Shown here in pieces: positions 2,886 to 12,009 of a stretch of 12,009 nucleotides of DNA. The notes beneath the pieces were generated by a model. That model did not search any database, was not told the DNA's origin, and was given only the letters and a program-made list of their open reading frames with translations. The stretch is from a virus, in the UHGV virus genome UHGV-0151214; one strand, given 5' to 3'. Position numbers and translations under genes: made by a program. Each line of letters opens with the position of its first letter. The stretch's first letter is position 1.

Positions 2886-3203
2886 CTATTTTTTCTCAGA
2901 GCTCATATTGTAATAGGTGGTATAAATAGAGATTGATTTCTGACATGCTTCAAGAAATTGCTGCGGAGTCATCCCAAGCCTTGCTTGCTCTGTAGTAAGG
3001 AATCTCTGTAAGAATTCATTCCCACCTGGCATGTTTGTAGATTCTTGGAATATTGCCATTTGTTTGATTGCACCACACATACCAGCCATTTTCGAAGCTA
3101 TCATGAGGCCTTGTATTTCATCAAAACTGCTATCGTCTGATTTTGTTTCTGCGTTAGCTATGCTCGAGAGACACAGGAGCAATAGGATAGCGATGCGTTT
3201 CAT
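2886..3203 (-). CDS. Small secreted (periplasmic) protein, 105 aa, with cleavable signal peptide and two Cys in the mature part; co-transcribed and translationally coupled with mnt
   Basis: Minus-strand ATG (3203-3201) overlaps the mnt stop (3202-3200) as ATGA. N-terminus MKRIAILLLLCLSSIANA-ETK is a classic Sec signal peptide with an AxA cleavage site. Two Cys in the mature part could form a periplasmic disulfide. Confidence 0.6.
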   Translation of the reverse strand: MKRIAILLLLCLSSIANAETKSDDSSFDEIQGLMIASKMAGMCGAIKQMAIFQESTNMPGGNEFLQRFLTTEQARLGMTPQQFLEACQKSISIYTTYYNMSSEKK

Positions 3204-3451
3204 TTTTCACCGTTGCCATGCATACATTTTAACTTCTCAACCTCATGCTCAAGCTCTATCAACCGCGATGCTATAGTTGCAATATCTAGTGCTTGAATAT
3301 GTTTATTTTTTTCAGTCCATGCCTCAAGTGCTGCTACCATCTCAGCATTTAATGAACGAGAATTAGCCTCAGCCAGCTCAATAAGACGTTCCTTTATCTC
3401 TACAGGAAGCCTCAGATTCACTTGAGGGTTTTTGTACTTACGATCAGACAT
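3200..3451 (-). CDS. mnt: Mnt-like ribbon-helix-helix repressor (83 aa)
   Basis: NLRLPVEIKERLIELAEANSRSLNAEMVAAL matches the P22 Mnt N-terminal RHH region (NFRMPMEVREKLKFRAEANGRSMNSELLQIV, from memory). Same length as P22 Mnt (83 aa) and divergent from the arc-ant operon as in P22 immI. AGGA SD 8 nt upstream on the minus strand. Confidence 0.85.
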   Translation of the reverse strand: MSDRKYKNPQVNLRLPVEIKERLIELAEANSRSLNAEMVAALEAWTEKNKHIQALDIATIASRLIELEHEVEKLKCMHGNGEK

Positions 3452-3488: not shown

Positions 3489-3537
3489 AGGTATCTATTG
3501 ACTATCAATGCGTACCTAAATACTATGTATGCGTACC
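3489..3537. promoter_or_regulatory. Divergent promoter/operator region between mnt and arc: candidate rightward promoter (TTGACT, 17-bp spacer, TACTAT), an overlapping 29-bp imperfect dyad, and two 9-bp direct repeats
   Basis: -35 TTGACT at 3498-3503, a 17-bp spacer, -10 TACTAT at 3521-3526, about 30 nt upstream of arc ATG 3557. Dyad AGGTATCTATTGACTATCAATGCGTACCT (3489-3517) matches its reverse complement at 20 of 29 positions and is centred on the -35. ATGCGTACC occurs at 3508-3516 and 3529-3537 (21-bp period). Confidence 0.45.
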
Positions 3538-3556: not shown

Positions 3557-3697
3557 ATGAAGGTAAAAACACTGCGTATGCCAGAGAAGTTAGAAAAAAT
3601 CCTTGAAGAGAAAGCAAAGGAAGAGTGTCGCTCATTTAGCGCAGAAGTAATTAAACGGGTGTTGGACAGCCTGAAAAGAGAGGGGATAACAGTATGA
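3557..3697 (+). CDS. arc: Arc-like ribbon-helix-helix repressor (46 aa)
   Basis: [46 protein letters not shown] aligns with P22 Arc (…RWPREVLDLVRKVAEENGRSVNSEIYQRVMESFKKEG, from memory). GGAGGA SD upstream of ATG 3557. Below the ORF-track size cut-off, found by manual translation. Confidence 0.8.
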   Translation: MKVKTLRMPEKLEKILEEKAKEECRSFSAEVIKRVLDSLKREGITV

Positions 3698-3897
3698 GTA
3701 AAGAATGTTGTTTCTGCGGCATTAGCGAATCAGACGCTGATCAAACATACATTTACTCTAAAGAAACAGGTCGGATGCTGTGTAGTGACTGCGTGTTGGA
3801 CATCATAAGATACAAGCATCTTGGATGTTCTGCCAGCATTAGCAATATAGGTGAAGTATACGAAGGGAAAGATATAACTGATAGAGCAGAAAGTTGA
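3694..3897 (+). CDS. Hypothetical small Cys-rich protein (67 aa; possible zinc-ribbon-like), translationally coupled to arc
   Basis: ATG 3694 overlaps the arc stop (3695-3697) as ATGA. Cys at positions 5, 6, 8, 30, 33 and 45 (CCFC … CSDC … C). It lies between arc and ant where P22, as remembered, has a short intercistronic region. Coding status uncertain. Confidence 0.4.
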
Positions 3898-3959
3898 AGC
3901 CCCAACTGCGGGAACAGTCAGGGCTTCGGTTGTCAGTAAATCCGTGGAGAAAAACCAAC

Positions 3960-4862
3960 ATGAATAGTATAGCAATTTTAGAAGCAGTGAACACCTCTTA
4001 CGTACCATTCAACGGTCAGCAAATTATCACCGCCATGGCTGCCGGAGTTGCATATGTTGCGATGAAGCCAATCGTTGAAAACCTTGGAATGAGCTGGTCA
4101 ACGCAGCAAACAAAACTCATGAAGCAGATTAGCAAATTCAACTGTGTTCATATGAACATGGTTGCCGCTGATGGGAAGCTTCGTAAGTTACTCTGCCTTC
4201 CTTTGAAGAAGTTAAATGGATGGCTGTTCAGCATCAACCCTGAGAAAGTTCGTGCTGACATCCGCGATAAACTGATTCAGTACCAGGAAGAATGCTTTAC
4301 TGTGCTGCATGACTACTGGACAAAGGGAAAGGCAGAAAATGCACGTAAGAAAACATCTGTTGATGACAGGACTCCGCTTCGTGATGCTGTAAATATGCTG
4401 GTCAGCAAAAAGCATCTAATGTACCCAGAAGCTTATGCAATGATTCATCAGCGTTTCAATGTGGAAAGTATTGAAGAGCTTGATGCATCTCAGATACCGC
4501 AAGCCGTAGAGTACATCCACAGGGTAGTGCTTGAAGGTGAGTTCATCGGCAAACAAGAAGAGTTACCAGCGCCGAAACTGGATATTAACTTCCCGATTTC
4601 ATGGTTTGCTGAAAATGCACCTTACGCCATTATCAGGCAGCAATGCGGTGATACTGTTGCTCTTGACCGCAGCGCACTCGTTGAATGCAGTCCGGCGTAT
4701 AAACTAATCGATATTCTGACAAAAGCGGGGTATGACGTTTCAGCAGTAAGAGCCGAGCTAAAAGCACTTCGCCATTTAATGGCTGAGCAAAGCTGGGCAC
4801 TTAAAGAGATAGCTTCATTCGCAGCGATACGTGATAGAGCGTGCCACTCAATTAAACTTTAA
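3960..4862 (+). CDS. ant: Antirepressor Ant (300 aa), P22 Ant-like
   Basis: Downstream of arc in the same orientation. ATG 3960 preceded by GGAG; 300 aa, the same length as P22 Ant. Its N-terminal domain is duplicated as a remnant at 2411..2647. The track's upstream start at 3894 overlaps the preceding ORF and lacks an SD. Confidence 0.8.
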
Positions 4863-4985: not shown

Positions 4986-7928
4986 ATGACAGACATTACA
5001 GCCAATGTTGTAGTGAGTATGCCATCGCAACTCTTCACTATGGCACGTTCTTTTAAAGCCGTAGCCAATGGAAAAATTTATATCGGTAAAATTGACACTG
5101 ACCCGGTAAATCCTGAAAACCAGATTCAGGTTTGTGTAGAGAACGAAGACGGTTCTCACGTTCCTGTTTCGCAACCAATCATTATTAACGCTGCTGGTTA
5201 TCCGGTATACAACGGACAGATTGCCAAGTTTGTAACCGTGCAAGGCCATTCTATGGCTGTTTACGATGCTTATGGGGCGCAGCAGTTCTATTTTCCTAAT
5301 GTGCTGAAGTATGATCCTGATCAGTTACGGCAGCAATTAGAAGACCCAGATGGAGCGAATAAATACCCAAAACTTCAGATAGCAAGATGGAGAGACAGTT
5401 ATGATGTAAGAGGTTGGGGGGCTATTGGTGATGGTGTTCATGATGATACATCAGCTCTATCAGAATTACTTTCTGTTGCAACAGGTGGTGAAAAGATAGA
5501 TGGGCGAGGGCTTACTTTTAAAGTATCAACTCTTCCAGATGTCAGTCGATTTAAAAATGCTCGTTTTTTATTTGAGAGAATACCGGGTCAGCCTCTTTTT
5601 TATGCTTCTGAAGATTTTATCCAGGGAGAGTTATTTAAAATTACAGATACACCGTGGTACAACGCCTGGACGCAGGATAAAACGTTTGTATATGACAATG
5701 TCATCTATGCGCCTTTTATGGCTGGAGACCGCCATGGTGTAAATAACCTCCATGTTGCATGGGTTCGCTCAGGAGATGACGGGAAGACCTGGACAACGCC
5801 GGAATGGCTTACAGATTTACATGAAAACTATCCCACAGTTAACTATCACTGCATGAGTATGGGGGTTGTCAGAAATCGCCTTTTTGCTGTAATTGAGACG
5901 CGGACCGTGAGCGGAAATAAACTGCAGGTTGCAGAGTTGTGGGATCGCCCAATGAGTCGCAGCCTTCGCGTTTATGGTGGTATAACGAAAGCAGCAAATC
6001 AGCAAGTCGCTTATATTCGCATTACTGATCACGGATTATTTGCTGGTGATTTTGTCAACTTCTCAAACTCTGGTGTTACAGGTGTTACCGGGAATATGAC
6101 GGTGACTACTGTTATTGATAAAAATACCTTTACAGTTACGACGCAAAATACCCAGGATGTGGATCAGAATAACGAGGGTAGATACTGGAGTTTTGGTACA
6201 TCATTTCACTCGTCACCATGGAGAAAAACCAGTCTTGGAACTATTCCTTCTTTTGTTGACGGAAGCACTCCTGTTACTGAGATTCACAGTTTTGCGACGA
6301 TTAGCGATAACAGTTTTGCTGTTGGCTACCATAATGGTGATATTGGTCCACGCGAGCTTGGGATACTCTATTTCTCTGATGCTTTCGGTTCTCCTGGTAG
6401 CTTTGTTCGCAGACGCATACCTGTAGAATATGAGGCGAATGCATCTGAGCCATGTGTAAAATATTATGATGGCATTCTGTATCTGACGACCAGGGGGACA
6501 TTAAGTACTCAACCCGGTAGTTCATTGCACAGAAGCTCTGATTTAGGTACATCATGGAATTCTCTTCGCTTCCCAAATAATGTTCATCACTCAAACCTTC
6601 CTTTTGCCAAAGTTGGCGATGAGCTGATTATTTTTGGCAGTGAGCGCGCATTTGGTGAGTGGGAAGGAGGAGAACCTGATAACCGTTATGCAGGAAATTA
6701 TCCAAGAACATTTATGACCAGAGTTAACGTCAATGGGTGGAGTCTGGATAATGTAGAGTGGGTTAATGTTACTGATCAGATTTATCAGGGCGGAATAGTT
6801 AACTCTGCGGTTGGTGTTGGTTCAGTTTGTATCAAAGACAACTGGCTGTACTACATTTTCGGTGGGGAAGACTTTCTAAACCCATGGAGCATAGGGGATA
6901 ACAACAGAAAATATCCTTATGTTCACGATGGTCACCCGGCTGATTTGTATTGTTTCAGGGTGAAAATTAAACAGGAAGAATTTGTTTCAAGGGATTTTGT
7001 CTACGGAGCCACTCCTAACAGAACGCTTCCTACTTTTATGTCGACGTCAGGCGTGAGGACGGTTCCTGTACCCGTTGATTTCACAGATGATGTTGCCGTC
7101 CAGTCACTGACTGTCCATGCAGGTACATCAGGACAAGTTCGCGCGGAAGTCAAACTTGAGGGTAATTACGCCATTATTGCGAAGAAAGTACCGTCTGATG
7201 ATGTTACCGCTCAGAGATTAATCGTTAGCGGCGGTGAAACAACGTCTTCAGCAGATGGTGCAATGATAACGTTGCATGGTTCCGGAAGCAGTACTCCACG
7301 TCGCGCGGTATATAACGCACTCGAACATCTTTTTGAGAACGGAGATGTTAAACCTTATCTTGATAATGTAAATGCTCTTGGTGGTCCGGGAAACAGGTTC
7401 TCGACAGTTTATCTTGGCTCCAATCCTGTGGTTACCAGTGACGGAACATTAAAGACAGAGCCGGTCTCTCCTGACGAAGCATTGCTGGATGCCTGGGGTG
7501 ACGTCAGGTATATCGCTTATAAATGGCTGAACGCTGTCGCTATAAAGGGGGAAGAAGGGGCGAGGATACATCATGGTGTAATCGCGCAGCAACTTCGTGA
7601 TGTTCTTATTTCTCACGGACTCATGGAAGAAGAAAGCACAACATGCCGCTATGCCTTTCTTTGCTATGACGATTATCCCGCAGTATATGATGACGTCATT
7701 ACTGGCCAAAGGGAAATGCCGCTGACTGATAATGACGGGAGCATCATTGTTGATGAGGATGATAATCCAGTGATGGTAATGGAAGACATCATTGAGCGCG
7801 TTGAAATAACGCCAGCAGGATCTAGATGGGGGGTCAGACCTGATCTCTTATTCTATATCGAGGCAGCATGGCAGCGCAGAGAAATGGATAAGATAAAAGA
7901 GCGGGTTCAGTCTCTGGAAGAACGTTAA
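4986..7928 (+). CDS. Tailspike protein (980 aa): P22-type head-binding N-terminal domain, sialidase-like catalytic region with two Asp-boxes (probable endosialidase, GH58-like), and C-terminal self-cleaving chaperone domain (peptidase S74-like)
   Basis: N-terminal about 110 aa ([11 protein letters not shown]…[22 protein letters not shown]…VLKYDPDQ) closely matches the P22 gp9 head-binding domain. Asp-boxes SGDDGKTW (aa 262-269, nt 5769-5792) and SSDLGTSW (aa 517-524, nt 6534-6557). [15 protein letters not shown] motif is also present. The C-terminus has S-DGTLK (Ser818 at nt 7437-7439) and [11 protein letters not shown], resembling the autoproteolytic chaperone domain of endosialidases and tail fibres. 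Confidence 0.85.
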
Positions 7929-7954
7929 AAAAAAGCCCGCAAAATATTGCGGGC
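7927..7954. terminator. Hairpin terminator at the tailspike 3' end; the U-tract is on the minus-strand side, so it is stronger for leftward transcription
   Basis: A8 run (7927-7934), then stem GCCCGCAA (7935-7942), loop AATA, stem TTGCGGGC (7947-7954). On the minus strand this reads hairpin plus T8. On the plus strand the hairpin is followed by ATCAAAAACGG. Confidence 0.5.
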
Positions 7955-8234
7955 ATCAAAAACGGAGTTGGTGAAAAGTTATCTTTGAATTCTATCATGA
8001 ATCAGTACGTATTTTAAATACATGTTCAGGTTTATTACACCATAGCATTATTAAATACAAAATTAAGTCTATGGTTCCTGTACAACTGCCCCCACTCTGC
8101 TGGCTCGTTCTGTAAAATCATTAGTACTTTTATTGAGATATATGATATGGAACAATAATGATTCATATATGGTTTACTATGCGGGTTTAGTCATCAATAA
8201 TTGACTGGCTTATAGATAGTAAACAGGAGAAAGT

Positions 8235-8639
8235 ATGTCTGCTCAAGTAACAAGTGAGCAATTAAATCAGTTGCTTAGTTTTGGTTCTCTTGCTGCAGTT
8301 ATTGCAGGTGTCCCTCCGGAGGTTGCTTTAGGGGCTTTGGCTGGGGCGGTAATTTTTGTTACCTCTGCAGTAGAGTACCCTATCCGTCGCCGGGTGCTCC
8401 TGTCGATGCTCAGCTTTCTTTGCGGCCTTCTCTTTTACAAACCAGCAGCATCAATTCTTATCGGCATAGCCAGCCTGATCCCTACCATCACGCAGGACTC
8501 TTTTGAAAAAGGGATTGTTTTCTCTGCAGGCGCATTCGTGTCAGCAATTGTCGCTGTGCGTATTGGTATATGGCTCTATCACCGTTCCGATAATCCACGC
8601 GAGTTAATTCCGGGGAGAAAAGACGATGGTAACGCATGA
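8235..8639 (+). CDS. Holin-like or antiholin-like membrane protein (134 aa, about 4 hydrophobic segments, charged C-terminal tail)
   Basis: ATG 8235 with AGGAG 7 nt upstream. Multiple TM-length hydrophobic stretches and a charged C-terminus ([19 protein letters not shown]). First gene of a cluster with a second holin-like gene, endolysin and spanins. Confidence 0.5.
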   Translation: MSAQVTSEQLNQLLSFGSLAAVIAGVPPEVALGALAGAVIFVTSAVEYPIRRRVLLSMLSFLCGLLFYKPAASILIGIASLIPTITQDSFEKGIVFSAGAFVSAIVAVRIGIWLYHRSDNPRELIPGRKDDGNA

Positions 8640-8934
8640 GTTTTTTTTGCTTATCACTAATGCAGTTATTTGCACTGGCATAGCAATTCGCGTTGTCACA
8701 TTCCGGCGTAACGGCTCTCAACATCGAAGGTGGGGAGGATGGCTTGCTTATTTCCTGATTGTTGCTGCGGCCAGTATTCCTGTTCGAGTCGCCTATGCAA
8801 TCTGGTTACGTACGCCAATGGCTGTGGATTTATCTGAGGTCATTATCAACGCTGTCATGCTGGCTGCGGTTATTAAAACGCGCGGTAACGTCGTTCAAAT
8901 TTTTAAAGTATCGAGGTCTAAACATGGAGATTAA
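8626..8934 (+). CDS. Putative holin (102 aa, 3 TM segments, basic C-terminal tail)
   Basis: Three hydrophobic segments and C-terminal [19 protein letters not shown]. Overlaps the preceding gene by 14 nt and the endolysin start by 11 nt. Confidence 0.6.
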
Positions 8935-9553
8935 ACAATTCCAGCGAGCTGCTGGTATCAGCGAGGCACTGGCCGCACGCTGGTTCTCGCATATAACTTC
9001 TGCGATGAAAGAGTTTGGTATCAGCAAAGCAGAAGATCAGGCAATGTTTATTGCTCAAGTCGGGCATGAGTCTGGGGGCTTCACCAGGTTGCAGGAGAAT
9101 TTCAACTACAGTGTCAGCGGACTGGCTAACTTCGTTCGGGCTGGGCGTCTCACTCAGGGGCAGGCTAATGCACTGGGGCGCCGTGCTGGTGAACCACCAT
9201 TGCCACTTGAGCGCCAGCGCGCGATCGCAAATCTGGTATACAGCAAACGCATGGGGAACAATGCCCCTGGTGATGGCTGGAATTACCGAGGGCGCGGACT
9301 TATCCAGATTACCGGTTTGAATAACTATCGTGATTGCGGAAACGGTCTGAAGGTTGACCTGCTGGAGAGCCCTGAACTGCTGGCGCAGGACGAATATGCG
9401 GCTCGTAGCGCGGCGTGGTTCTTCGCCAGCAAAGGATGCATGAAGTATACCGGCGATATTGCACGTGTAACTCTGATTATCAATGGTGGCCGGAACGGCA
9501 TCGACGACCGGCGAGCGCGGTACATCACTGCCAGTAAGGTGCTGGCGGTATGA
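8924..9553 (+). CDS. Endolysin, glycoside hydrolase family 19 (chitinase-like phage lysozyme), 209 aa
   Basis: GH19 signatures [12 protein letters not shown] (catalytic Glu in HES), a second Glu in LQENFNY, and [19 protein letters not shown] 8924 preceded by GAGG. The track's longer version from 8759 reads through the holin in a frame with no lysozyme similarity. Confidence 0.85.
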
Positions 9554-10032
9554 TCTGGGCATTCGTAAAAGCATACTGGAAACAGTTTCTTATCGTGGCA
9601 GTGCTTGCTGTTCTGGTCATATCAGGAGTGGTTGCCTGGAATATACACGGCAGTCGCCAGTACGATGCCGGGTATGCTCAGGCGGAAGAAGACCGCAAAG
9701 CCGAAGAAGACAAAGTTCGTCAGTACTACGAACAGGAGAAAGTGACCAATGAACGTGAAGCTCAGCAGAGGATCGACCAGGCGCGCAATGATGCTCTTGA
9801 TGCTGCCGCTAGCGCTGGCCGGTTGCAGCAACAACTCTTTGCCATCCGTGAGCAGCTCAGGCAGTATAACGCCATTGTCGGCGCTGGGTCGTCAGCCGCA
9901 GACACCGGAGTTTTGCTTGCCGACGTGCTCAGCAAATCTCTCGAGAGAAACAGACAACTGGCAGAGTATGCTGACCGGGCAGCCGAAGCCGGAAGAGTCT
10001 GCGAAAAACAGTACGACACTTTGACCAGATAG
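9550..10032 (+). CDS. i-spanin (Rz-like inner-membrane spanin subunit), 160 aa
   Basis: ATGA overlap with the endolysin stop. N-terminal TM ([18 protein letters not shown]), a long charged coiled-coil periplasmic region, and a Cys near the C-terminus. Sits immediately after the endolysin and contains an embedded lipoprotein ORF. Confidence 0.75.
9788..10024 (+). CDS. o-spanin (Rz1-like outer-membrane lipoprotein), embedded in the +1 frame of the i-spanin gene
   Basis: [13 protein letters not shown] has a lipobox (LAGC) and a signal-peptidase II site. The mature part is about 58 aa, Ser/Pro-rich with additional Cys. It lies entirely within 9550..10032 in another frame. Start taken at ATG 9788; the track's 9749 start adds an unlikely N-terminal extension. 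Confidence 0.65.
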   Translation: MMLLMLPLALAGCSNNSLPSVSSSGSITPLSALGRQPQTPEFCLPTCSANLSRETDNWQSMLTGQPKPEESAKNSTTL

Positions 10033-10184
10033 CATGGCATTTTTCATGGTACTGATTTCCGGTGACGGTATATAAAACGGTACGGGAAAAATTGAGATTT
10101 GGAAAAATGTTATCACTCAATTGGTTATGGTTATCGTAAATAATTGAGTGGAATGATTTGACCCTGCACTATGAATGAACAAAA

Positions 10185-10210
10185 CCCTCTGTTACTACAG
10201 AGGGTTTTTT
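10185..10210. terminator. Bidirectional rho-independent terminator between the lysis cassette (+) and the convergent minus-strand operon
   Basis: Stem CCCTCTGT (10185-10192), loop TACT, stem ACAGAGGG (10197-10204), then T6 (10205-10210). Preceded by AAAA, so it is usable from both strands. Confidence 0.7.
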
Positions 10211-10248
10211 ATACTCACGAATCATAGGCTTGAAGTTACTGACATCGC

Positions 10249-10788
10249 TTAGTTAAACCAGCTGTCCGATTTGTTCTCTTCTGCTTTGCCCACGCTTTTC
10301 ATCAGATCTCGACCGCCCTCAGTCATATTCCTGTTTGCGTCAGCTTCAGATTGCACCACATCGGTTTGCGCAGCTTTGTGCTTCAGTTCCTGATCGATAA
10401 ATTCGTTTTCTCGCTTAACGCGGGCTTCTTCTTTCGCCAGCGCCAGTTTTTGTTTCTGAATCTCTAAGCTGCGTAGCTCATCTTCATAACTTTGATCGCG
10501 TTTTTTGTCCGCAGAGGCTTCGGCGTCCAGTTTATCCTGACGAGCTTTCTTATTTGCCGCTGCCGTTGCCGCTCTTTTGTTAGCGGCGGCCTGGGCGTTT
10601 GCGCGACGTTGCTTCTCTTGCTGGATTTCCCTGTTGCGCTCCGCGACCCATTCGTCATGCTGCCTTTGCTCTTCATTTTTACCTTGCTGTTCCGCTTCTG
10701 CGACAGCAGAGAGTTGATCCTGCAATGATGAGGCGATAGCCGGATAGCTTAAGGAGGCTAAGATGGCGCAAAGAAAAACTTTCTTCAT
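10249..10788 (-). CDS. Secreted Lys/Glu/Ala/Gln-rich (coiled-coil-like) periplasmic protein, 179 aa, with signal peptide
   Basis: Strong GGAGGAG SD upstream of the minus-strand ATG. N-terminus MKKVFLCAILASLSYPAIA-SS is a Sec signal peptide. The rest is highly charged and helical (…QQEKQRRANAQAAANKRAATAAANKKARQDKLDAEASADKKRD…). Lies 16 bp downstream of the lipoprotein gene on the same strand, so probably an operon. Confidence 0.6.
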   Translation of the reverse strand: MKKVFLCAILASLSYPAIASSLQDQLSAVAEAEQQGKNEEQRQHDEWVAERNREIQQEKQRRANAQAAANKRAATAAANKKARQDKLDAEASADKKRDQSYEDELRSLEIQKQKLALAKEEARVKRENEFIDQELKHKAAQTDVVQSEADANRNMTEGGRDLMKSVGKAEENKSDSWFN

Positions 10789-10803
10789 GACTCCTCCTGA
10801 TCA

Positions 10804-11322
10804 TTAGCTCTTTTCAGGACATTTGGTATTTGGCTGAATACGCGTTTCGTTATACGTCGTGGTAATAACAACGGCTAAACCTGTCGTAAACTGGCACTCT
10901 TTACCCACCTGGGTGGAGGTATACACTTTGGTGCCTTCCTTATACGTTAGAGAAACACCTTCCACTAAGGTTTTATCATTCACCATAGAACCCGCTGCCG
11001 CGCCAACAGCTCCGCCGCCAACTGCACCTGCCGTCGTTCCGGAATTGCTGCCAGACCCGACGTTGTGGCCAATAACACCGCCAGCGACTGCACCAATAAG
11101 CGCGCCGAAGGCTTGTGCGTTTCGTTTATTTTGGGAGTTGTCTACGGCAACTTTTGCGGGAAGAATGGAAATAATATTAACGGTTTTAGTTTCTTGTTTG
11201 GTATTCAGTTGATCGGTTTGATAAACATCGGCGGCATGATCATCAGCATTTGACTGGCATCCTGCCAGAGTGAATGACGCTAACATTGCCACAGGCAGAA
11301 GACATTTTTTAAATTTCATCAC
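10804..11322 (-). CDS. Outer-membrane lipoprotein with glycine-zipper region (SlyB/Pcp/YcfJ-like family), 172 aa
   Basis: Lipobox FTLAGC after a signal peptide. Gly-zipper segment GALIGAVAGGVIGHNVGSG…AGAVGGGAVGAAAG resembles the glycine-zipper motif of YcfJ/SlyB-type lipoproteins (recalled, not searched). AAGGA SD 7 nt upstream. The upstream region 11323-11510 is strongly AT-rich. Confidence 0.65.
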   Translation of the reverse strand: MMKFKKCLLPVAMLASFTLAGCQSNADDHAADVYQTDQLNTKQETKTVNIISILPAKVAVDNSQNKRNAQAFGALIGAVAGGVIGHNVGSGSNSGTTAGAVGGGAVGAAAGSMVNDKTLVEGVSLTYKEGTKVYTSTQVGKECQFTTGLAVVITTTYNETRIQPNTKCPEKS

Positions 11323-11632
11323 TATTCCTTGTTATACACATTACGAAAAATAAGACATTTAAGATCATCAAAAGAGGAAAGTAAATGTATTGCGTATAAA
11401 GGAATAGATTAAATTTATTAAAATTCATGTGGAAAATAATTTATAAAAATACATCATTAAAACATATGTATTAATTTTATATTTATTTCGCAGCCAAACA
11501 GGATAAACATCAGTCAGGACAAAGACGTAAAATTTAAGATGAAAGAATATCTGCCGCTTTGATAATCCCAAAGAGCAAAAGCATCCGACAGCGAGGTGCC
11601 GTTATGTTCTGTGAAAGTGGAGAAGGTAACCG

Positions 11633-11806
11633 CTAACGTTGTACCGGTGATTCGACGGAGAGTGTGGATTGCTGAGCTTCTTTTTTGCTCTGATGGTGCT
11701 GCCATGCACCGACGGACGAGTAGATAAAACGGCCAAAGAAGAAGATAAAGCTGATGAGCAGTACGATACGGGTCATGCGACTGTTAAATCGGTGTCGTTT
11801 TCGCAT
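11633..11806 (-). CDS. Possible small membrane protein (57 aa from ATG 11806; alternative start ATG 11776)
   Basis: Minus-strand ORF encoding MRKRHRFNSRMTRIVLLISFIFFFGRFIYSSVGAWQHHQ… with one clear TM segment. The track start is GTG with no convincing SD. Coding status uncertain. Confidence 0.2.
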   Translation of the reverse strand: MRKRHRFNSRMTRIVLLISFIFFFGRFIYSSVGAWQHHQSKKEAQQSTLSVESPVQR

Positions 11807-12009
11807 ACTGGTTGCCTGACTCACAAAAGGTTCCTTGATGTATGTCCCACGCTGTGGACGGTACTTACATTAAGGCACAACAGGACAAAATGGTCAATTC
11901 TTCGTTATGTAAAAAAGCGTCAGTGGATACATATTTTAATGTTATGGAAGTTAATTTAATTATTTACAATGATGATGTAATAATGATGAATTAACATGAT
12001 AAACGTAAT

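Follow-up and report, generated by a model that had tools for sequence, protein, structure and literature searches.

A cysteine-rich small gene between arc and sar in the immI region of a P22-like Escherichia coli prophage, and its likeness to the ClpX zinc-binding domain

The immI region and the position of ORF67

The DNA analysed here (the window; 12,009 nucleotides (nt) of the virus genome UHGV-0151214) is part of a P22-like (Lederbergvirus-type) Escherichia coli prophage whose tailspike is a K1 endosialidase. In P22, immI, with Mnt, Arc, sar and Ant, is a textbook regulatory circuit. We found that the immI region of the window carries an additional open reading frame (ORF) of 67 amino acids (aa), here called ORF67 (3694-3897, plus strand), between the gene for the Arc-like repressor and the sar antisense RNA. 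As an earlier note on this DNA had described, ORF67 is Cys-rich and coupled to arc by a start-stop overlap: its ATG (3694-3696) and the arc TGA are joined as ATGA. A GAGGGG Shine-Dalgarno element (3680-3685, plus strand), read from the sequence, is located 8 nt 5' of this ATG, within the last arc codons. The predicted product, MSKECCFCG followed by 20 residues and then CSDC, has the Cys pattern CxxC-x21-CxxC, and probably forms a C4 zinc finger (C5, C8, C30, C33) of the type found in the zinc-binding domain (ZBD) of ClpX. The stop codon of ORF67 (TGA, 3895-3897) is supplied by the base of the sar terminator (TGAAGCCCC), and the same is true of every alternative gene that we found at this site.

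The flanking arc gene (3557-3697, plus strand) encodes a ribbon-helix-helix (RHH) repressor of 46 aa with a match to Pfam PF03869 (E 3.7e-8); in identical E. coli prophages, the Prokaryotic Genome Annotation Pipeline (PGAP) names it 'Arc family DNA-binding protein'. On the opposite strand, mnt (3200-3451, minus strand) encodes an Mnt/Arc-family repressor of 83 aa (Pfam Arc, E 3.1e-10), and its DNA is 94% identical to mnt of phage CUS-3. A consensus scan of the sequence between these genes gave promoter-like sites for Pant (3498-3526, plus strand) and Pmnt (3508-3480 or 3497-3468, minus strand), assigned as such from their position and by analogy with P22 and epsilon34. An inverted-repeat search identified an imperfect 18-nt palindrome (3484-3501/3505-3522; 78% complementary) whose centre lies between the -35 elements of the divergent Pant-like and Pmnt-like sites and which, by analogy, is likely the Arc/Mnt operator of this immI variant. 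Downstream, ant (3960-4862, plus strand) encodes an antirepressor of 300 aa and of the epsilon34 type (Pfam P22_AR_N, E 2.9e-45). The consensus scan revealed no terminator-like site on the plus strand between arc and ant.

This layout corresponds to that of a P22-type immI in most respects: the two RHH repressor genes, mnt and arc, are divergent (with promoters at the consensus level), sar lies across the ant ribosome-binding site, and ant is downstream of arc, such that mnt, the divergent promoter-like sites, the arc-type RHH gene, the 68-nt sar and ant occur in the same order as in P22 and epsilon34. In contrast to those phages, in which arc abuts sar and ant (~68 nt), the window contains an extra cistron, ORF67, between arc and sar, which widens the arc-ant gap to 262 nt and accounts for all of the extra distance. 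The earlier note had recognized this long interval and its ORF, but its length of 263 nt needs to be reduced by one, since ant starts at 3960. The window also differs in the type of its arc, which ends ...SLKREGITV rather than ...KKEGRIGA as in P22 and epsilon34.

The sar RNA (3892-3959, minus strand; 68 nt) is complementary to the ant ribosome-binding region and matches Rfam RF00262 over its full length (95.6 bits vs a gathering score of 43, E 3.8e-21); no other Rfam family was found in a scan of the window. Its terminator stem-loop (3896-3927, minus strand), which was recovered by Rfam, by folding and by the inverted-repeat search and is invariant in all variants of the site, has a full stem of 3896-3908/3915-3927. 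The inverted repeat that the earlier note had placed just upstream of the ant ribosome-binding site is real and corresponds to this 14-bp sar terminator stem; its left arm is at 3896-3902, whereas the position proposed there (3894-3900) is two bases too far to the left. The RNA folds at -29.4 kcal/mol, with a z of -5.15 for the minus strand vs -1.56 for the plus strand. DNA homology to P22 and epsilon34 starts at 3890 and includes the ant start, with 100% identity to epsilon34 over 211 bases, and in epsilon34 the end of arc coincides with the end of sar. These data indicate that ORF67 is an insertion between arc and a sar-ant module that is canonical in other respects.

We considered whether the interval might instead house an extended or additional antisense or regulatory RNA, either a longer sar, as suggested in the earlier note, or a structured ant leader. 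The interval does adjoin sar directly, and the sar 3' end overlaps the ORF67 stop by 6 nt. However, sar fits the 68-nt Rfam model end to end and keeps the same terminator in every variant of the site. Furthermore, the 204-nt ORF67 region (3694-3897) has no Rfam match and exhibits no excess RNA folding on either strand (z -0.30 and -0.18), and the DNA of the interval is not conserved in the Salmonella homologues described below. Because sar is standard and the ORF folds unremarkably, the suggestion of a longer antisense element is not borne out, and we regard an RNA of this kind as highly improbable. We conclude that ORF67 has no role in antisense control by sar, which is itself complete and of the usual size.

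The phage CUS-3 encodes an identical ORF67 protein, and its DNA is 94% identical to the window over mnt-arc-ORF67-sar. The CUS-3 record annotates the whole mnt-ant interval only as 'bsq2; boundary sequence', with neither arc nor ORF67 marked. Within this 'bsq2' interval of CUS-3 (CP000711), we found an unannotated Arc-family gene of 46 aa (L001 3346-3486) as well as ORF67. CUS-3 had been inferred to lack arc (PMC2629481); given the Arc-family ORF in 'bsq2', that published inference appears to be wrong.

Conservation of ORF67

Close copies of ORF67 are abundant. The identical protein is encoded by CUS-3, UTI89, NU14 and further genomes; identity is 99% or more in 70 RefSeq records; and the exact protein occurs, named "hypothetical protein", on at least 1000 contigs, with all full-length variants among those listed being 67 aa long. 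ORF67 also matches phrog_7150, a family of unknown function (E 3.4e-50). The frame itself is rarely open by chance, as only 37 of 5000 shuffles of the interval (0.7%) kept it open for 67 codons. The close copies say little about whether ORF67 is a gene; the decisive evidence comes from its diverged relatives.

Two such relatives lie in P22-like prophages of Salmonella. The first, a protein of 68 aa (P0014), was the sole true relative returned by an exhaustive HMMER search with ORF67, and the second (P0019) was found in a search seeded with P0014. Word-indexed homologue searches with ORF67 gave near-identical proteins only, the Salmonella relatives being reached after seeding with P0014, and a scan of genome contigs for relatives confirmed none. 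The top matches of the exhaustive search were long vertebrate Ig-repeat proteins (E to 2e-20), which we rejected as spurious: each aligned through 4-9 short stretches on the low-complexity tail. The Salmonella genes occupy the same site, with arc at 3846-4004, the ORF at 4001-4207 (ATGA or GTGA overlap) and then sar and ant, in the coordinates of the Salmonella locus. The first 27 nt of the Salmonella homologue are near-identical to the window and form a junction in common with the arc C-terminus. Past codon 9, DNA identity drops to 35 of 90 positions, yet residues 10-67 of ORF67, taken alone, align to the Salmonella protein with a pairwise E of 2e-6, a score reached in none of 5000 shuffles.

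A third lineage is represented by a 63-aa form from sar-bearing viral contigs. At 26-37% identity, the three lineages share eleven invariant positions (C5, C6, F7, C8, G9, S22, K23, T25, C30, C33 and I37), which include the four Cys ligands and a conserved SKxT motif, and the relatives keep the same arc-sar location, a similar length and the same start-stop overlap with arc. The two Salmonella alleles differ at 17 nt, none of them in codons 20-47, and both synonymous changes are on the codons for Cys5 and Cys8. In addition, intact ORF67 is found together with three different types of Ant N-terminus. From these comparisons, we consider a coding function for ORF67 to be well supported. The suggestion of the earlier note that the interval gained a small metal-binding protein is likewise supported by this conserved C4 zinc-finger family, with metal binding itself a prediction. 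On the opposite strand, an ORF of 92 aa (3730-4008, minus strand) spans sar and most of ORF67 and is open in the E. coli copies. We rejected it as a gene, as it is not conserved in the homologous loci of Salmonella; it is probably a by-product of the sense frame.

Several observations nonetheless weigh against ORF67 as a functional gene. Among them are lambdoid prophages of enterohaemorrhagic E. coli (EHEC) O157:H7 and O145, such as Sakai Sp6, which carry a complete mnt-arc-ORF67-sar-ant block between the lambda-type tail genes L and K (L002 3859-4323; L004 3907-4374). In these copies, one extra T in the T-run at codons 6-7 changes the product to MSKECCFLRH followed by a stop. The change is fixed in the lineage, and the frameshifted allele makes up 304 of the 374 E. 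coli RefSeq records with the ORF, and 11 of 40 IMG/VR loci. Across the whole gene, the ratio of non-synonymous to synonymous substitution rates (dN/dS) is ~1.2 between the two Salmonella alleles (over their 17 differences), and the few differences among close E. coli alleles are mostly non-synonymous. Some natural ORF67 alleles (P0026, P0034) have the first zinc ligand changed to Tyr (C5Y). Together, the dN/dS value and the C5Y alleles indicate that constraint is visible in the finger core only. PGAP, for its part, calls no ORF67 in the RefSeq records examined or listed. Finally, P22 and epsilon34 do without ORF67, and unrelated cassettes fill the same site, which indicates that ORF67 is dispensable for immI function.

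The EHEC allele deserves separate comment, since the earlier note had proposed that frameshifts or stops in related phages, with the nucleotide sequence conserved, would speak for an RNA element. Such a situation exists in this one lineage, and it is outweighed by the deeply diverged intact homologues. We read the EHEC frameshift as decay on three grounds: the insertion arose once and was inherited within a module that has been shared recently (97.6% identity); the O157 arc is truncated as well; and EHEC-type alleles with further indels exist (P0003, P0004), some of which may be assembly errors. A programmed frameshift at the EHEC T6 run was also considered, but by our reading a -1 slip would enter the wrong frame, which makes a plain pseudogene the more likely.

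These observations bear on an alternative in which the interval holds no functional gene, and is either a non-coding 'boundary' or linker sequence that aids module exchange or a decaying pseudogene that is open here by chance. Such a reading would accommodate the 'boundary sequence' label of the CUS-3 record, the lack of a PGAP annotation, the 97.6-100% identity of the module across mosaics whose arc and ant flanks differ strongly, the retention of frameshifted EHEC copies and the dN/dS of the Salmonella alleles. It does not fit the homologues, however, in which the DNA is near-unrelated yet the ORF, its length, the arc overlap, the four Cys residues and the SKxT motif are kept, nor the two Salmonella alleles, in which the core is unchanged and the synonymous changes sit on the Cys codons. 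Moreover, the conserved junctions are confined to the two ends, one made up of the arc C-terminus and the initial 27 nt and the other of the TGA at the base of the sar terminator, with no conservation of the DNA of the body, and the further indels in the EHEC-type alleles, allowing for assembly errors, fit the inactivation of a gene. We therefore consider it improbable that the interval lacks a functional gene.

Likeness to the ClpX zinc-binding domain and the arc-sar cassette site

The four Cys ligands of ORF67, with a spacer of 21 residues, conform to the arrangement of two CxxC pairs separated by ~18-22 residues. We found that comparisons of the ORF67 family with an alignment of ClpX ZBDs by hhalign gave probabilities of 78% and 76% (E ~2e-5 over 29 columns, from shallow profiles with a Neff of ~2), in a register that aligned all four ligands and the FCG motif. 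A profile built from five family sequences had a single match among 177,635 Protein Data Bank (PDB) sequences, the N-terminus of Neisseria ClpX (E 0.013); a four-sequence profile had no ClpX match in the PDB. In the same register, phrog_5259 was matched by ORF67 (6.7e-5), by residues 1-60 of E. coli ClpX (5.5e-7) and by a 60-aa prophage protein described below (P0020; 9e-8), as well as by both Salmonella homologues, one of which (P0019) is named 'ClpX-type ZB domain-containing protein' in UniRef. A shuffle test of ORF67 against the ClpX ZBD gave p ~0.012. Taken together, these profile comparisons suggest that ORF67 is probably homologous to the ClpX ZBD.

Other results are weak or count against this assignment. 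ORF67 has no match to the Pfam model of the ClpX finger (PF06689) at E up to 1, and thus does not reach Pfam membership (27 bits); against the same cut-off, P0014 scores 13.2 bits and the 63-aa relative 12, and P0019 has no match. The spacer between the Cys pairs is 21 residues vs 18 in ClpX. An AlphaFold2 model of ORF67 is weak and of low confidence, with a helix (residues 31-39) placed right after the second CxxC, and its structure matches are to treble-clef types (RING, ZZ). Literature searches found no stand-alone phage ZBD proteins. More broadly, ORF67 reached no Pfam or NCBIfam family and had no PADLOC match, and a phmmer search of the PDB returned only the RNF4 RING (E 0.005-0.4). The earlier note had likened the product to a small zinc-ribbon; the profile comparisons place this predicted C4 zinc finger nearer to the ClpX ZBD, a treble clef, than to a classical ribbon.

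With these points in mind, the fold of ORF67 would consist of a CxFCG knuckle, a beta-hairpin and a second CxxC that opens a helix, followed by a variable and probably disordered tail. The ClpX ZBD (PF06689, zf-C4_ClpX; PDB 1OVX, 2DS5-2DS8) has the same elements: CxFCG...(I/L)CxxC(V/I), a helix from the second CxxC and a pocket Phe, in a domain of ~40 residues. The ZBD dimer of ClpX uses a hydrophobic pocket, which includes Phe16 and Ile46, to bind SspB, RssB, trigger factor and lambda O (PMC7804408). Under the hhalign alignment, the invariant Phe of the CxFCG motif (F7) corresponds to ClpX Phe16. In contrast to ClpX, ORF67 is a stand-alone protein without an AAA+ module, and it has an additional conserved Cys (Cys6), the SKxT motif and the variable C-terminal tail, with zinc binding, dimerisation and ligand binding predicted at most.

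A clear ClpX-type finger does occur at the same site in other prophages. The 60-aa 'ClpX C4-type zinc finger protein' of enterobacterial prophages (WP_115194777/P0020), found in other E. coli P22-like prophages, shares with ORF67 the arc-sar location, the arc overlap, the stop and the domain class; it passes the Pfam threshold (37.7 bits, 1.9e-9) and matches 1OVX (E 3e-6). It differs from ORF67 in having no detectable pairwise similarity to it (E 0.14), and belongs to a separate cassette family of uncharacterised function. One allele of this finger (L005 2321-2503) has the same replacement of the first ligand by Tyr that occurs in some ORF67 alleles (KYSFCG vs KCSFCG in P0020).

We surveyed the site by scanning IMG/VR for the sar terminator and reading the gene upstream in 113 usable loci among the matches listed (L055-L174), a redundant sample to which all of the following counts refer. 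In 60 loci, 44 of them of the P22 type, arc abuts sar directly. The other 53 contain a cassette, in each case after an arc that ends ...SLKREG(I/V)x(V/I), and at least nine different small genes are represented, with sizes of 57-89 aa and one reduced to 12 aa. Intact ORF67 occupies 16 loci, with a frameshifted ORF67 in 4 and the 63-aa relative in 1; the 60-aa ClpX finger accounts for 2 loci and a 74-aa CxxC...CxxC protein (Pfam ClpX, 0.0015) for another 2. The remaining occupants are a 57-aa protein (13 loci, including the form deleted to 12 aa), an 89-aa membrane protein (7), a 73-aa protein (6) and an 80-aa protein (2). ClpX-ZBD-like C4 fingers thus occupy 25 of the 53 filled sites and represent 5 of 9 cassette types. 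Every cassette begins on the arc stop and is closed by the TGA at the base of the sar terminator. These data demonstrate that the arc-sar junction is a defined site of interchangeable small cassettes flanked by conserved junctions. Casjens and co-workers described the 'ant moron' region as highly variable (PMC2629481), and this variability is resolved here to a defined cassette site.

Possible roles of ORF67 and its neighbours

In the immI circuit of P22, Mnt keeps Pant repressed in lysogens, and Arc shuts it off soon after infection. Considering the anatomy of the region, the conservation of the ORF and the identity of sar, we favour, by a modest measure, the interpretation that ORF67 is a true gene, the third cistron of the Pant operon (arc-orf67-ant), and that it encodes a divergent relative of the ClpX ZBD carried as an exchangeable cassette. 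Its translation would be coupled to that of arc through the ATGA overlap and its own Shine-Dalgarno element. Membership in the Pant operon and coupling to arc would confine its production to a brief early burst, together with Arc and Ant. A free ZBD mimic made at that time could bind the ligands of the ClpX N-domain, such as adaptor tails and ZBD-dependent substrates, or could pair with the ClpX N-domain itself; in either case, the ClpXP proteolysis of phage or host proteins would be changed transiently early in infection. Zinc binding, expression and an action on ClpXP are predicted here from sequence, and that the argument for the last of these proceeds from homology counts against it: we put forward the ClpXP-directed mechanism only tentatively.

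A bolder extension, which we regard as speculative and rather unlikely, is that ORF67 and its slot-mates represent an undescribed class of phage decoys of the ClpX N-domain, made only in the Pant burst that follows infection. Such decoys would titrate SspB, RssB, lambda-O-type replication proteins and perhaps Ant, or would cap the ClpX N-domain, and host ClpXP proteolysis would be briefly reprogrammed during the lysis-lysogeny or anti-immunity decision. In the Salmonella prophages with the 68-aa homologue, a gene for a ClpP-like peptidase of 178 aa (PF00574, E 1.1e-11) comes immediately after mnt and has the same orientation (L008 2967-3503, minus strand; same position in L009-L013), with a stop/start overlap with mnt and with the Ser, His and Asp residues seemingly retained, as judged by eye. 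If the decoy proposal holds, this gene, joined to the mnt operon, would be part of the same picture. The link between the ClpP-like and ClpX-ZBD-like genes of one immI moron may be functional, or may reflect no more than shared descent.

Two further explanations accept ORF67 as a gene but assign it a different role. The main rival, possible if doubtful, is that ORF67 is a real zinc finger whose likeness to ClpX is at the level of the fold only, and that it acts in the immI circuit or on some other target, for example by binding Ant or Arc and so tuning the antirepressor, by binding nucleic acid, or as an anti-defence or host-takeover factor unrelated to ClpXP. Its position, co-transcribed and translationally coupled with arc and just upstream of ant, would suit such a role, as would an in-frame Arc-ORF67 fusion in one assembly (P0001). 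The fold matches are to generic treble-clef protein-interaction modules (RING, ZZ), with the Pfam ClpX model unmatched, and the unrelated cassettes at the site (the transmembrane protein and the 57-, 73- and 80-aa proteins) suggest a general location for accessory genes, not one specific to ClpX-type fingers. On the other hand, the occurrence of ORF67 with three Ant types, and of the same arc types with other cassettes, argues against a dedicated Ant or Arc partner. In addition, all sequence-profile links of any significance lead to the ClpX ZBD, and one of the other occupants of the site is a bona fide ClpX-type finger. Much less probable still is that the Arc-like RHH protein and ORF67 constitute a type II toxin-antitoxin-like pair. 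The order of genes, in which a small ORF overlaps the end of an RHH gene by 4 nt, is reminiscent of such systems, but neither a toxin or defence family nor PADLOC was matched; the same arc types precede unrelated cassettes, and there are other arc types that lie directly against sar; in EHEC O145, arc is kept although the ORF is disrupted; and the operon is the known autoregulated Pant unit.

The Arc-ORF67 fusion (P0001) is a protein of 112 aa (...SLKRGGDGMSKECC...) from one 2.6-kb Logan contig. It fits a 2-nt deletion at the end of arc, and is either a sequencing error or a natural fusion.

On the other side of immI, an ORF of 105 aa (2886-3203, minus strand), whose N-terminus resembles a signal peptide (MKRIAILLLLCLSSIANA...), overlaps the mnt stop (ATGA) and, given this overlap, is probably co-transcribed with mnt; it matches phrog_19844, of unknown function, and has no Pfam match. 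Downstream of ant, the K1-specific endosialidase tailspike gene (4986-7928; Pfam End_beta_propel, E 1e-232) begins a segment (4986-12009) that continues directly with a holin gene (8235-8639), a DUF2514 Rz-like gene (9550-10032), a DUF5384 gene and a gene for a TraT/Gly-zipper lipoprotein. It is phages TL-2011b and vB_EcoP_ZX5, rather than CUS-3, that have this arrangement, from the endosialidase to the lipoprotein gene, at 95-99% identity.

Some elements of this account were already known: the protein as a database hypothetical, its PHROG of unknown function, the domain class and immI itself. What is new is the proposal of ORF67 as a ClpX-ZBD-like third Pant cistron, the defined cassette site and the corrected annotation of CUS-3. 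ORF67 is present in the well-studied extraintestinal pathogenic E. coli strains UTI89, NU14 and RS218/CUS-3, unannotated in RefSeq and in the CUS-3 record. Within a textbook circuit, nearly half of the related prophages in the redundant sample listed have a further small gene, coupled to arc in translation, ahead of sar. If ORF67 does mimic the ClpX N-domain, it would provide a compact natural probe of adaptor-dependent ClpXP proteolysis and would represent a new type of phage host-takeover factor; if it does not, it would still define a clear small-protein family with a simple genetic test system.

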